The notes beneath the pieces were generated by a model. It did no database searches. It was not told the DNA's origin and saw nothing but the letters and a program-made list of their open reading frames with translations. Positions 2,272 to 44,823 of a stretch of 64,000 bases of DNA are shown here, one piece after another. The position numbers and the translations under genes are program-made. The stretch is from Escherichia coli. Lineage in GTDB: Bacteria > Pseudomonadota > Gammaproteobacteria > Enterobacterales > Enterobacteriaceae. The stretch's first letter is position 1. Every line of letters begins with the position of its first letter. Location of the stretch: the NCBI RefSeq assembly GCF_030013595.1, contig NZ_CP122768.1; one strand, given 5' to 3'.

Positions 2272-3176
2272 TTTCCGCTTCGCTGCAACAACGTAAAACT
2301 CGCACCCGCCGCAGCATGTTGTTTGTACCTGGTGCCAATGCCGCGATGGTCAGCAACTCCTTCATCTACCCGGCTGATGCCCTGATGTTTGACCTCGAAG
2401 ACTCCGTGGCATTGCGTGAAAAAGACACAGCCCGCCGCATGGTTTACCACGCGCTGCAACATCCGCTGTATCGCGATATTGAAACCATTGTGCGTGTAAA
2501 CGCGCTGGATTCCGAATGGGGTGTTAACGACCTGGAAGCCGTCGTTCGCGGTGGTGCGGACGTTGTGCGTCTGCCGAAAACCGATACCGCTCAGGATGTT
2601 CTGGATATCGAAAAAGAGATCCTGCGCATCGAAAAAGCCTGTGGTCGTGAACCCGGCAGCACCGGCTTGCTGGCGGCGATTGAATCTCCGCTGGGCATTA
2701 CCCGCGCAGTGGAAATCGCTCACGCTTCCGAGCGTTTGATCGGTATCGCCCTCGGTGCAGAAGACTATGTGCGCAACCTGCGTACAGAACGCTCCCCGGA
2801 AGGAACTGAACTGCTGTTCGCACGCTGCTCCATTTTGCAGGCCGCGCGCTCTGCGGGTATTCAGGCGTTCGATACCGTCTATTCCGACGCTAACAACGAA
2901 GCCGGATTCCTGCAAGAAGCCGCCCACATCAAACAGCTGGGCTTTGACGGCAAATCGCTGATCAACCCGCGTCAGATTGATCTGCTGCACAACCTCTACG
3001 CACCGACCCAGAAAGAAGTGGATCACGCCCGCCGCGTCGTAGAAGCCGCTGAAGCCGCCGCTCGCGAAGGCCTCGGCGTGGTTTCCCTGAATGGCAAGAT
3101 GGTGGACGGTCCGGTTATCGATCGCGCCCGTCTGGTGCTCTCCCGCGCAGAACTTTCCGGCATCCGCGAAGAATAA
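2268..3176 (+). CDS. citE: Citrate lyase beta subunit (citryl-CoA lyase)
   Basis: ORF 2253-3176; start at ATG 2268 ([10 protein letters not shown]...) gives 302 aa; ATGA overlap with the citD stop. Confidence 0.9.
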
Positions 3177-3186
3177 GGCAATCAAA

Positions 3187-4719
3187 ATGACGCAGAAAAT
3201 TGAACAATCTCAACGACAAGAACGGGTAGCGGCCTGGAATCGTCGCGCTGAATGCGATCTTGCCGCTTTCCAGAACTCGCCAAAGCAAACCTACCAGGCT
3301 GAAAAAGCGTGCGATCGCAAACTGTGCGCCAACCTGGAAGAAGCGATTCGTCGCTCGGGTTTACAGGACGGTATGACGGTTTCCTTCCATCACGCTTTCC
3401 GTGGCGGTGACCTGACCGTCAATATGGTGATGGACGTCATCGCGAAAATGGGCTTTAAAAACCTGACTCTGGCCTCCAGCTCCCTGAGTGATTGCCATGC
3501 GCCGCTGGTAGAACACATTCGCCAGGGCGTGGTTACCCGCATTTATACCTCTGGCCTGCGCGGTCCACTGGCGGAAGAAATCTCCCGTGGTCTGCTGGCG
3601 GAACCGGTGCAAATCCACTCTCACGGCGGACGTGTGCATCTGGTACAGAGCGGCGAACTGAATATCGACGTGGCTTTCCTCGGCGTCCCGTCCTGTGATG
3701 AATTTGGTAATGCCAACGGCTACACCGGTAAAGCCTGCTGCGGCTCCCTCGGCTATGCAATGGTTGATGCCGACAACGCGAAACAGGTTGTGATGCTCAC
3801 TGAAGAACTGCTGCCTTATCCACATAATCCGGCAAGCATTGAGCAAGATCAGGTTGATCTGATCGTCAAAGTTGATCGCGTTGGCGATGCCGCGAAAATC
3901 GGCGCTGGCGCGACCCGTATGACCACTAACCCGCGCGAACTGCTTATTGCCCGTAGCGCTGCGGATGTGATTGTCAACTCAGGCTACTTTAAAGAAGGTT
4001 TCTCCATGCAGACCGGCACCGGCGGCGCATCGCTGGCGGTAACCCGTTTCCTGGAAGACAAAATGCGTAGCCGCGATATTCGCGCCGACTTCGCCCTTGG
4101 CGGTATTACCGCAACGATGGTTGATCTGCACGAAAAAGGTCTGATCCGCAAACTGCTGGATGTACAGAGCTTTGACAGCCACGCGGCACAATCGCTGGCC
4201 CGTAACCCCAATCACATCGAAATCAGCGCCAACCAGTACGCTAACTGGGGTTCAAAAGGCGCATCGGTTGATCGTCTCGACGTGGTGGTACTGAGCGCGC
4301 TGGAAATTGACACCCAGTTCAACGTTAACGTGCTGACCGGCTCTGACGGCGTACTGCGTGGTGCTTCCGGTGGTCACTGCGATACCGCGATTGCCTCTGC
4401 ACTTTCCATCATCGTCGCACCGCTGGTACGCGGTCGTATTCCGACTCTGGTGGATAACGTGCTGACCTGCATCACCCCGGGCTCCAGTGTCGATATTCTG
4501 GTCACAGACCACGGTATCGCAGTTAACCCGGCACGTCCGGAATTGGCAGAACGTCTGCAGGAAGCGGGGATCAAAGTGGTTTCTATTGAGTGGCTGCGTG
4601 AACGTGCGCGTCTGCTGACCGGTGAACCACAGCCGATTGAATTCACCGACCGCGTCGTTGCCGTTGTGCGTTACCGCGATGGCTCGGTGATCGATGTTGT
4701 GCATCAGGTGAAGGAATAA
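3187..4719 (+). CDS. citF: Citrate lyase alpha subunit (citrate CoA-transferase)
   Basis: ORF 3091-4719; start at ATG 3187 (MTQKIEQSQRQE...) gives 510 aa. Confidence 0.9.
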   Translation: MTQKIEQSQRQERVAAWNRRAECDLAAFQNSPKQTYQAEKACDRKLCANLEEAIRRSGLQDGMTVSFHHAFRGGDLTVNMVMDVIAKMGFKNLTLASSSLSDCHAPLVEHIRQGVVTRIYTSGLRGPLAEEISRGLLAEPVQIHSHGGRVHLVQSGELNIDVAFLGVPSCDEFGNANGYTGKACCGSLGYAMVDADNAKQVVMLTEELLPYPHNPASIEQDQVDLIVKVDRVGDAAKIGAGATRMTTNPRELLIARSAADVIVNSGYFKEGFSMQTGTGGASLAVTRFLEDKMRSRDIRADFALGGITATMVDLHEKGLIRKLLDVQSFDSHAAQSLARNPNHIEISANQYANWGSKGASVDRLDVVVLSALEIDTQFNVNVLTGSDGVLRGASGGHCDTAIASALSIIVAPLVRGRIPTLVDNVLTCITPGSSVDILVTDHGIAVNPARPELAERLQEAGIKVVSIEWLRERARLLTGEPQPIEFTDRVVAVVRYRDGSVIDVVHQVKE

Positions 4720-40975: not shown

Positions 40976-41011
40976 GTTTTGCGTTTGTCATCAGTCTCTA
41001 ATATGGTCGAC

Positions 41012-41632
41012 ATGAAAACTACGCATACCGCCCTCCCCTTTGCCGGAAATACGCTGCATTTTGTTAAGTTCGATCCGGCGAGTTTTCGCGAGCAGGATTT
41101 ACTCTGGCTGCCACACTACGCACAACTGCAACACGCTGGACGTAAACGTAAAACAGAGCATTTAGCTGGACGAATCGCTGCTGTTTATGCCTTGCGGGAA
41201 TATGGCTATAAATATGTGCCCGCTATCGGCGAGCTACGCCAACCTGTGTGGCCTGCGGAGGTATACGGCAGTATTAGCCACTGCGGGACTACGGCATTAG
41301 CCGTGGTATCTCGTCAACCGATTGGCATTGATATCGAAGAGATTTTCTCTGTACAAACCGCAAGAGAATTGACAGACAACATTATTACACCAGCAGAACA
41401 CGAGCGACTCGCAGAATGCGGTTTAACCTTTTCTCTGGCGCTAACACTGGCATTTTCCGCCAAAGAGAGCGCATTTAAGGCAAGCAAGATACAGGCCGCT
41501 CAAGGTTTTCTGGATTATCAGATAATTAGCTGGAATAAACAGCAGATCATCATTCGACTAGAGGATGAGCAGTTTGCTGTGCACTGGCAGATAAAAGAAA
41601 AAATAGTCATAACGCTGTGCCAACACGATTAA
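41012..41632 (+). CDS. entD: Enterobactin synthase phosphopantetheinyl transferase
   Basis: Within ORF 40862-41632; start at MKTTHTALPFAGNTLHF... gives 206 aa. Confidence 0.85.
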   Translation: MKTTHTALPFAGNTLHFVKFDPASFREQDLLWLPHYAQLQHAGRKRKTEHLAGRIAAVYALREYGYKYVPAIGELRQPVWPAEVYGSISHCGTTALAVVSRQPIGIDIEEIFSVQTARELTDNIITPAEHERLAECGLTFSLALTLAFSAKESAFKASKIQAAQGFLDYQIISWNKQQIIIRLEDEQFAVHWQIKEKIVITLCQHD

Positions 41633-41742
41633 TTGACAACATCTGGTACGATTCGCCCGCAGCCATTGCTGACCGCGGGCGAAAGTGTAAAACAGGTGCC
41701 TTACCACCCTGACCTGACAACCGGATATGCGGGGATTACTCC

Positions 41743-43080
41743 CATAAGCGCTAACTTAAGGGTTGTGGTATTACGCCTGATATGATTTAACGTGCCGATG
41801 AATTACTCTCACGATAACTGGTCAGCAATTCTGGCCCATATTGGTAAGCCCGAAGAACTGGATACTTCGGCACGTAATGCCGGGGCTCTAACCCGCCGCC
41901 GCGAAATTCGTGATGCTGCAACTCTGCTACGTCTGGGGCTGGCTTACGGCCCCGGGGGGATGTCATTACGTGAAGTCACTGCATGGGCTCAGCTCCATGA
42001 CGTTGCAACATTATCTGACGTGGCTCTCCTGAAGCGGCTGCGGAATGCCGCCGACTGGTTTGGCATACTTGCCGCACAAACACTTGCTGTACGCGCCGCA
42101 GTTACGGGTTGTACAAGCGGAAAGAGATTGCGTCTTGTCGATGGAACAGCAATCAGTGCGCCCGGGGGCGGCAGCGCTGAATGGCGACTACATATGGGAT
42201 ATGATCCTCATACCTGTCAGTTCACTGATTTTGAGCTAACCGACAGCAGAGACGCTGAACGGCTGGACCGATTTGCGCAAACGGCAGACGAGATACGCAT
42301 TGCTGACCGGGGATTCGGTTCGCGTCCCGAATGTATCCGCTCACTTGCTTTTGGAGAAGCTGATTATATCGTCCGGGTTCACTGGCGAGGATTGCGCTGG
42401 TTAACTGCAGAAGGAATGCGCTTTGACATGATGGGTTTTCTGCGCGGGCTGGATTGCGGTAAGAACGGTGAAACCACTGTAATGATAGGCAATTCAGGTA
42501 ATAAAAAAGCCGGAGCTCCCTTTCCGGCACGTCTCATTGCCGTATCACTTCCTCCCGAAAAAGCATTAATCAGTAAAACCCGACTGCTCAGCGAGAATCG
42601 TCGAAAAGGACGAGTAGTTCAGGCGGAAACGCTGGAAGCAGCGGGCCATGTGCTATTGCTAACATCATTACCGGAAGATGAATATTCAGCAGAGCAAGTG
42701 GCTGATTGTTACCGTCTGCGATGGCAAATTGAACTGGCTTTTAAGCGGCTCAAAAGTTTGCTGCACCTGGATGCTTTGCGTGCAAAGGAACCTGAACTCG
42801 CGAAAGCGTGGATATTTGCTAATCTACTCGCCGCATTTTTAATTGACGACATAATCCAGCCATCGCTGGATTTCCCCCCAGAAGTGCCGGATCCGAAAAG
42901 AAGAACTAACTCGTTGTGGAGAATAACAAAAATGGTCATCTGGAGCTTACAGGTGGCCATTCGTGGGACAGTATCCCTGACAGCCTACAAAACGCAATTG
43001 AAGAACGCGAGGCATCGTCTTAACGAGGCACCGAGGCGTCGCATTCTTCAGATGGTTCAACCCTTAAGTTAGCGCTTATG
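41743..43080 (+). mobile_element. IS186 insertion sequence (IS4 family), complete, 1338 bp
   Basis: 23-bp terminal inverted repeats cataagcgctaacttaagggttg (41743-41765) and caacccttaagttagcgcttatg (43058-43080); identical 10-bp direct repeats ggattactcc at 41733-41742 and 43081-43090. Confidence 0.9.
41960..43072 (+). CDS. insL: IS186 transposase (DDE)
   Basis: ORF 41792-43072; start placed at MSLREVTAWAQL... to give the ~370 aa I recall for InsL; start uncertain. Confidence 0.75.
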   Translation: MSLREVTAWAQLHDVATLSDVALLKRLRNAADWFGILAAQTLAVRAAVTGCTSGKRLRLVDGTAISAPGGGSAEWRLHMGYDPHTCQFTDFELTDSRDAERLDRFAQTADEIRIADRGFGSRPECIRSLAFGEADYIVRVHWRGLRWLTAEGMRFDMMGFLRGLDCGKNGETTVMIGNSGNKKAGAPFPARLIAVSLPPEKALISKTRLLSENRRKGRVVQAETLEAAGHVLLLTSLPEDEYSAEQVADCYRLRWQIELAFKRLKSLLHLDALRAKEPELAKAWIFANLLAAFLIDDIIQPSLDFPPEVPDPKRRTNSLWRITKMVIWSLQVAIRGTVSLTAYKTQLKNARHRLNEAPRRRILQMVQPLS

Positions 43081-43101
43081 GGATTACTCCCCGCACAACG
43101 G

Positions 43102-43254
43102 CTACTTCTTCGGTTCGTAAGCGAGAACAGCCTTAAACTCAATATTACGTTCCTTCACCGTAAACTCACACAGCGAGTCTCCGACCAGAAGCGTAAATCC
43201 CAGTACCGTCAAACACAGCACTATGACTGCCACAAGGGCATATTTCGTCAGCAT
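43102..43254 (-). CDS. hokE: Hok-family small toxic membrane peptide (type I toxin)
   Basis: Minus-strand 50-codon [53 protein letters not shown], typical Hok; stop codon lies 21 bp from the IS186 target duplication. Confidence 0.85.
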
Positions 43255-43680
43255 GTTTATATTGCCTCCATGCGAAGAAGGGACTACCATCCAAATTGTC
43301 TGGTTTGGAGTGGCAGCCCCAGGGTTGATAGAAATATCTCCTGGGGCTTCATCTTTCCAGACCTCAGAGTAAACCTGAAACCGGAAAGCTTCAGGCACCC
43401 GCCGTTATCTTACCCTTCCTCAGCAAAATAGCTGTTTATTTATACAGTGAGTCCTGTTTCGGACTTCTCACTCCTCATTTGATCAACTGAAGCTGAACCC
43501 GTTTTTTTCTGCATGCCTCAATCGTCAAAATTCTTCGCCACCAGCCAGCTCTGCCATAACTTGTCACATTGCAGAAGTAGCCAAACTTCTTCAGTCACAA
43601 TCAGTTCACCATCACCAAAAAAAGAAACATTCCAGAACTTCCGCATCTCGCCCAGTCGCTCCCACTTCTATACTGAATAG

Positions 43681-44823
<1,143 letters not shown>

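Follow-up and report, generated by a model that had tools for sequence, protein, structure and literature searches.

An IS186 insertion beside hokE in Escherichia coli, probably recent and independent of that in K-12, and a one-base difference that hints at how its transposase is made

Introduction

Does the copy of the insertion sequence (IS) IS186 that lies just downstream of the toxin gene hokE in the 64,000-nucleotide (nt) stretch of Escherichia coli DNA analyzed here (contig NZ_CP122768.1 of assembly GCF_030013595.1; "the window" below) descend from the insertion known at the same place in K-12, or has the same site been hit again? IS186 is among the four most active IS in laboratory E. 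coli, with hot spots at lon, fimA and menC. The initial annotation of the window stated correctly that K-12 carries an IS186 21 nt after hokE (IS186B of strain MG1655 is at the same site and at the same distance) and took the junction for a marker of that lineage. Our analysis leads to a different answer. The window copy is very probably a recent and independent cut-and-paste insertion into a preferred target, which splits the 3' untranslated region (UTR) of hokE. In kind this finding is ordinary, involving a known element, a known hot spot and a known gene. The most interesting point at the locus is a one-base difference that hints at how IS186-like transposases are probably made.

Identity of the element and its target site

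The element occupies positions 41743..43080 (1338 bp including its ends, transposase on the + strand) and is identical to K-12 IS186B minus one C, by which it is assigned to IS186 of the IS4 family, with a DDE transposase. Both terminal inverted repeats (IRs), at 41743..41765 (+) and 43058..43080 (-), are perfect 23-bp copies of CATAAGCGCTAACTTAAGGGTTG and the only two matches to it within the 64 kb (0.00 expected by chance). They are bordered by the target-site duplication GGATTACTCC, at 41733..41742 and 43081..43090 (unstranded), as seen by direct reading and by alignment with the empty site of a close relative. The length, the IRs and the identical 10-bp direct repeats described in the initial annotation were thus all confirmed, although the identical flanking run is really of 12 nt, GGGATTACTCCC; because the element has the termini C...G, the duplication measures 10–12 bp according to the choice of ends.

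By the same boundaries IS186A and IS186B of K-12 are 1339 bp each and both have seven Cs (C7) where the window copy, at 42874-42879, has six (C6). This is why the window copy is 1 nt shorter, and apart from this single-base deletion in 1339 bp it does not differ from IS186B. The description of the element as a complete IS186 is therefore right for the termini, which are intact, and not for the transposase frame, which departs from the canonical one by the 1-nt deletion. Of the 5,426 complete E. coli genomes searched, 2,220 contained IS186 sequences, the median carrier having them at 5 places.

The features by which IS186 and the IS4 family are recognized are otherwise present: the IRs, the near-identity to the K-12 copies, the DDE transposase and a duplication of about 10 bp within GGGG(N6/N7)CCCC. 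The canonical InsL frame of 370 amino acids (aa), given by C7, is the feature that is absent, as C6 opens a 424-aa open reading frame (ORF). This ORF matches Pfam DDE_Tnp_1 (E 2.4e-26) and NCBIfam transpos_IS4_1 (132.7 bits; cut-off 115), and contains the Y-(2)-R-(3)-E-(6)-K signature (YREK motif) in the form YRLRWQIELAFKRLK. A sequence-profile search of the transposase against PDB gave no match; the fold search with an AlphaFold model of the 424-aa protein (predicted local distance difference test, pLDDT, 82) gave the Tn5 transposase as its only PDB match (E 1e-8).

The 50-aa toxin coding sequence (CDS) of hokE is intact at 43102..43254 (-), as placed by the ORF list and by RefSeq annotation of homologous loci. 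Its stop codon is TAG at 43102-43104; 11 nt separate it from the duplication and 21 nt separate it from the IR, both distances as initially annotated. Rebuilt without the insertion, the target reads GGGG-ATTACT-CCCC, a canonical GGGG-N6-CCCC IS186 site that bears out the "GGGG-N-CCCC-like" context noticed before, and no second site of the GGGG(N6/N7)CCCC type was found within the 64-kb window. Staggered cleavage of GGGG-ATTACT-CCCC followed by repair would leave GGATTACTCC duplicated. The same pattern, GGGG(N6/N7)CCCC, was found for 59 new IS186 insertions by Lee et al. 2016 (PMC5009759), in whose count the K-12 genome has just 19 N6 sites and in whose data single sites were hit repeatedly and in both orientations.

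Origin of the insertion

The first evidence on the origin of the copy is its orientation. The transposase gene of the window copy is transcribed towards hokE, whereas K-12 insL2 is co-directional with it, and on the entD side the sequence past the shared 23-bp repeat is TGGTATTACG in the window and AACCATCTGA in K-12. At the lon promoter, another hot spot of IS186, opposite orientation has been taken as proof of an independent event (PMC3045373). The second evidence comes from the flanks, which are 94–97% identical to K-12. The closest complete genome is instead that of E. coli HCP5S3_I2 (from pig faeces, UK), with 99.97–99.98% identity over 40.5 kb, in which we counted 10 substitutions and one indel in a run of As. 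In this genome the site is uninterrupted, ...GCGGGGATTACTCCCCGC..., and its two alignment blocks overlap on the window by exactly the 12 nt GGGATTACTCCC. Comparison with this insertion-free strain gives matching boundaries and verifies both these and the GGGG-N6-CCCC context. None of the complete genomes with IS186 in the window orientation exceeded 98.0% identity over 25 kb. With an empty site in a near-identical genome and carriers of the same orientation at 98.0% or below, the insertion appears to be recent and private to its lineage.

That the insertion was inherited from an ancestral event shared with the IS186B-hokE junction of K-12 is hardly credible on these data. The site, the duplication and the 21-nt distance are indeed all as in MG1655, but the orientation is opposite, the flanks are far closer to the empty-site strain than to K-12, and the target is the canonical hot-spot motif, of a kind hit repeatedly both ways (PMC5009759). 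The orientation could also have changed without a new event if an older K-12-type insertion had turned round at its site, either through recombination of its two 23-bp repeats or through excision followed by re-insertion; the duplication being identical and the IRs perfect, such an inversion would be scarless. We regard this as improbable, since homologous recombination works poorly on repeats as short as 23 bp and the site is cleanly empty in the closest complete genome. Besides, de novo insertion in either direction at one site is documented (PMC5009759, PMC3045373).

We have also determined the state of the hokE site with 500-nt junction queries (at least 80% coverage) in the 5,426 complete E. 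coli genomes. It was empty in 2,897, carried IS186 in the K-12 orientation in 1,667 and in the window orientation in 234; counting both orientations, about 1,900 genomes have an IS186 there. Insertions in the K-12 orientation are found on at least two very different flank haplotypes, that of Ecol_545 (99.2% identity over the junction query) and that of K-12 (entD-side flank 92.5% identical to the window). The census bears as well on a third explanation, namely that the junction is an assembly artefact in which a repeat copy was put at the wrong locus. Multi-copy elements such as IS186 can be misplaced by assemblers; still, the duplication is precise at both junctions, the target is canonical, and the same entD-side junction in the same orientation is found in the 234 complete genomes mentioned above, so that an artefact is extremely improbable.

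An independent insertion is thus the explanation that we retain, and the hokE site is a recurrent hot spot and no lineage marker. The proposal of a K-12 marker is contradicted by the opposite orientation, by flanks closest to an empty-site strain and by the occupancy of about 1,900 of the 5,426 genomes. The IS186-hokE junction is unusable as a marker of K-12 or of any other lineage, the hairpin of the hok 3' UTR having been hit many times and in both orientations.

The transposase frame and its tail

The loss of one C has a large effect on the transposase ORF, located at 41798..43072 (+; 424 aa plus stop). Residues 1-360 (to ...SLDFPP) are identical to the 370-aa InsL of K-12, and from residue 361 on a tail that is normally in the +1 frame is read in frame, the junction peptide being ...SLDFPPEVPDPK. 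With C6 the ORF ends within the right IR at 424 aa; with C7 it stops after 370. In alignments, these 64 additional residues correspond to the C-terminal ends of distant IS4-family transposases that are encoded in a single frame and are 425-442 aa long. Closer relatives are annotated with 361-368 aa, and all of them stop at the same D-S/F-P-P point and have the same tail in the +1 frame. The NCBI family model ends before the tail.

To place the window copy among its relatives we scanned one genome per GTDB species, which returned 79 loci, 69 of them classifiable, from Proteobacteria, Acidobacteria, Bacillota, Verrucomicrobia, Planctomycetota, Myxococcota and others. The tail was in the +1 frame in 50 of the 79 loci (50 of the 69 classifiable) and in the same frame in 13; six more had it nominally in the -1 frame, with weak tail scores or variants in the length of the C run, and 10 were incomplete. 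Residues W374 and R415 of the tail are invariant in an alignment of 26 sequences with 31–68% identity, the tail is modelled as two helices (pLDDT about 80–88), and the differences between related pairs in the +1-frame tail fall 64, 47 and 110 times at codon positions 1, 2 and 3, an excess at the third position. These three observations indicate that the tail is translated. In Tn5, the counterpart of this two-helix tail is needed for synapsis.

From these comparisons we consider it rather probable that the 370-aa InsL of the annotations comes from unshifted reading and lacks the C-terminal part, and that the full 424-aa enzyme would need the loss of one C in the mRNA at the frame junction, in IS186 and in a broad clade of the IS4 family. 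If so, the C6 copy of the window would be a naturally "pre-slipped" allele, from which the full-length protein is made constitutively.

The C6 allele could be either real or a sequencing error. Exactly this 424-aa protein has been recorded on 130 contigs, and C6 copies were found in 146 of 2,718 IS186-bearing records. Part of these are probably homopolymer errors of long reads, since one re-sequenced MG1655 has C6, and the window copy may be another such error; over the 40.5 kb of flank the window and HCP5S3_I2 differ by a single indel, and this too falls in a homopolymer. Independent O104:H4 assemblies, on the other hand, have C6 in common, which speaks for a real allele. The indel in question is A7 versus A8 at window position 43617, in an intergenic A-run between sokE/hokE and ybdK. 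Either the two strains truly differ here or one assembly has a homopolymer error, and this bears on how far the C6 can be trusted.

A hairpin and a pyrimidine tract at the frame junction

The point where the two frames meet has a distinctive organization. The pyrimidine tract TTTCCCCCC at 42871..42879 (+) forms the junction between the 0 and +1 frames, and its C run is the one that differs from K-12, as established by comparison with K-12 and with the relatives. Within the transposase gene and directly 5' of this T/C run, a hairpin search detected AATCCAGC-CATC-GCTGGATT at 42853..42872 (+), with a homologous helix that covaries among relatives. Among the +1-frame loci listed, 57 of 58 have a pyrimidine tract with at least 4 Cs at the junction and 56 at least 5; examples are GGACTCTCCCCCC followed by TGA, TTTTTCCCCC followed by TGG and, in IS186, GGATTTCCCCCCC followed by AGA. 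The C run is missing from most same-frame relatives. Of 45 distinct loci, 35 have a hairpin of at least 5 bp shortly before the run, and in about 30 of the 45 it has a G+C-rich stem and a loop of 3-6 nt and ends 8-12 nt before the last C. The mean stem length was 5.0 bp against 2.7 bp in shuffled sequences.

In 16 sequences with the hairpin in register, 91.7% of the cells of the 6-bp helix were paired compared with 72.7% after shuffling (none of 500 shuffles was as high), and five of the six helix pairs had changed on both sides, with at most 50% in slid controls; this subset was picked for its in-register hairpins, a selection biased towards structure. For 24 junction sequences out of register RNAalifold recovered a 3-bp helix alone.

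A conserved downstream part in the +1 frame, preceded by a heteropolymeric pyrimidine tract with a hairpin directly 5' of it, looks like the architecture of programmed transcriptional slippage. Hairpin-stimulated slippage would most likely be, to judge from this organization, the recoding route of IS186-like transposases. The alternative is ribosomal frameshifting to +1 at CCC_AGA or CCC_UGA. The second of these is a known shift-prone site (PMC5009743), and CCC_UGA is found at 16 of the 57 +1-frame junctions listed (which include 7 fetched before the genome scan). The junction of IS186 itself is CCC_AGA, with a rare Arg codon. However, the A-site codons are varied and in many relatives ordinary (UGG, UAC, UCU), and an upstream hairpin placed at the distance of the RNA-DNA hybrid suits slippage better. 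For these two reasons we rank frameshifting below slippage.

A review of the IS4 family gives "absence of frameshift" as a hallmark of the family (PMC2266710), and a 2016 review of recoding lists frameshifting in the IS1, IS3, IS5 and IS630 families only, with no IS identified that uses +1 ribosomal frameshifting. In the literature searched, whose scope did not include Sharma 2011 and Penno 2015, we found no description of recoding in IS186 or its IS4 clade. If the real transposase of IS186 does depend on recoding by one nucleotide, the 370-aa InsL annotation would be incomplete, the hallmark of no frameshift in IS4 would be due for revision, and E. coli would carry a natural case of hairpin-dependent heteropolymeric slippage.

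Predicted effect on the hokE/sokE RNA

The locus has the marks of a hok/sok module, an ORF of about 50 aa of the Hok type and a leader with the Sok region. The 5' leader of the hokE mRNA, including the Sok target region, matches Rfam RF01794 at 43246..43400 (-) with 83.7 bits (gathering score 59), which places the mRNA 5' end at about 43400 and its terminal GGGUGCCU (tac) at 43393-43400. We have rebuilt the uninterrupted transcript by taking the IS and one duplication copy out of the locus, and folded it by minimum free energy (MFE). In this fold nt 1-8 pair with AGGCACCU at 41694..41701 (-), an fbi-like element of the mRNA 3' end that is now cut off by the IS, and between the stop codon and this element the IS186 target forms the hairpin GCGGGG-AGUAAU-CCCCGC. 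The insertion splits that hairpin, leaving its distal half at 41729..41742 (-) and its proximal half at 43081-43094, so that the earlier suggestion of an altered 3' folding of the hokE mRNA is plausible according to the model. The fbi-like element ends up 1,348 bp further from the hokE stop, while the CDS, the leader and the Sok region are intact. Pairing of tac and fbi within one transcript, the remaining mark of the module, is predicted solely in the IS-free mRNA.

In hok of plasmid R1 the tac/fbi pairing holds the full-length mRNA in a closed form that cannot be translated, the mok Shine-Dalgarno being sequestered, and slow 3' processing yields a translatable form that is bound by Sok RNA (PMC9841398). 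By separating hokE from fbi, IS186 would prevent a stable inert pool of hokE mRNA from forming. On the strength of the in-silico fold and of this published model, the hokE/sokE module is most likely disabled or deregulated by the insertion, because such a pool could not form. The disrupted locus was folded with four different 3' ends, and with three of them the 5' end paired locally; AGGCACC is absent from the IS antisense RNA.

Several points weigh against this interpretation. In one of the four disrupted-transcript folds the 5' end had a fortuitous partner at long range, and the tac-fbi pairing is an 8-bp helix in an MFE fold of a single sequence. Chromosomal hok loci have moreover been reported without post-segregational killing even when intact (bioRxiv 10.1101/2025.08.07.668861), and for this reason the phenotypic consequence of the insertion may be nil. 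Whatever the phenotype, the census of the site means that hokE is uncoupled from its 3' control element in about a third of complete E. coli genomes, which bears on the function of chromosomal hok loci. A comparable disablement or deregulation of the K-12 hokE/sokE copy by IS186 was reportedly inferred long ago.

Some other features were seen around the module. At permissive thresholds an Rfam scan of 41000-44000 gave the sok/hok leader model alone and no known RNA family inside the IS. A scan of the region with promoter and terminator consensus found 0 promoter-like sites and 2 terminator-like ones, against 2.1 expected. Among the latter is a hairpin, GCCGGAAAGGGAGCTCCGGC followed by TTTTTTATTA, at 42509-42528 on the minus strand, antisense to the transposase inside IS186; for transcripts reading through from hokE it would come some 550 nt inside the IS, although such sites are no more numerous in the region than chance predicts. 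Between the entD stop and the fbi-like element, at 41652-41683, is an inverted repeat with 14-bp arms (TTCGCCCGCAGCCA and TGACCGCGGGCGAA). It is not followed by a U-run on either strand, and would be a strong hairpin if the hokE transcript reaches that far. On the plus strand a 117-aa ORF (43078-43431) is antisense to hokE and its leader; its RefSeq counterparts are "hypothetical protein", often frameshifted or labelled pseudogene, and the gene call, made over the hok/sok RNA region, is most likely spurious. Finally, E. coli Z1002 (positions 2810-3466 of its locus) has the whole hokE unit duplicated in tandem between entD and ybdK, with two hokE CDSs and two matches to the Rfam sok model, and the 91-nt 3' segment containing fbi is also present twice. 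Matches in two pieces suggest a similar duplication in E. coli W, O157:H7 and O103:H2 strains, and the genome paper of E. coli W describes multiple hokE copies (PMC3032704).

Comparison with known systems

The nearest counterpart of the window insertion is IS186B beside hokE in K-12 MG1655 (NC_000913.3, 608010-609348 by the IR boundaries), with the same element, target, duplication and 21-nt distance to the stop, and with the opposite orientation, C7 instead of C6 and another host lineage. In the same way, IS186A of K-12 has hit the paralogous 3'-UTR hairpin of hokC, GGGG-ATCACT-CCCC, 22 nt from the hokC stop and with a 10-12-bp duplication; its transposase is convergent with hokC as that of the window is with hokE, although the hok paralogue and the chromosomal locus are different. 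The lon hot spot shares the repeated insertion at one exact position, in both orientations, and a duplication made of the core plus flanking G/C (PMC5009759, PMC3045373). Insertion at lon kills a promoter, whereas at hokE it is the 3' UTR of an mRNA that is split.

Similar parallels can be drawn for the frame junction. The CCC_UGA found in part of the IS186 relatives is the site of +1 frameshifting in Listeria phage tsh and E. coli pheL, systems from which the IS186 group differs by the ordinary A-site codons of many of its members and by the upstream hairpin. The closest likeness is with an IS of Roseiflexus, reported as of the IS630 family, in which, according to reviews (PMC5009743, PMC6211511), a hairpin directly 5' of T5C5 was shown by experiment to cause E. 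coli RNA polymerase to drop one C. IS186 and its relatives have a hairpin near a T/C tract too (T5C5 in several relatives, T3C7 in IS186), which stops 8-11 nt short of the tract's end, and they would likewise need exactly one C lost to join the frames. The differences are that IS186 belongs to the IS4 family and that its junction is near the C-terminus, after the catalytic domain.

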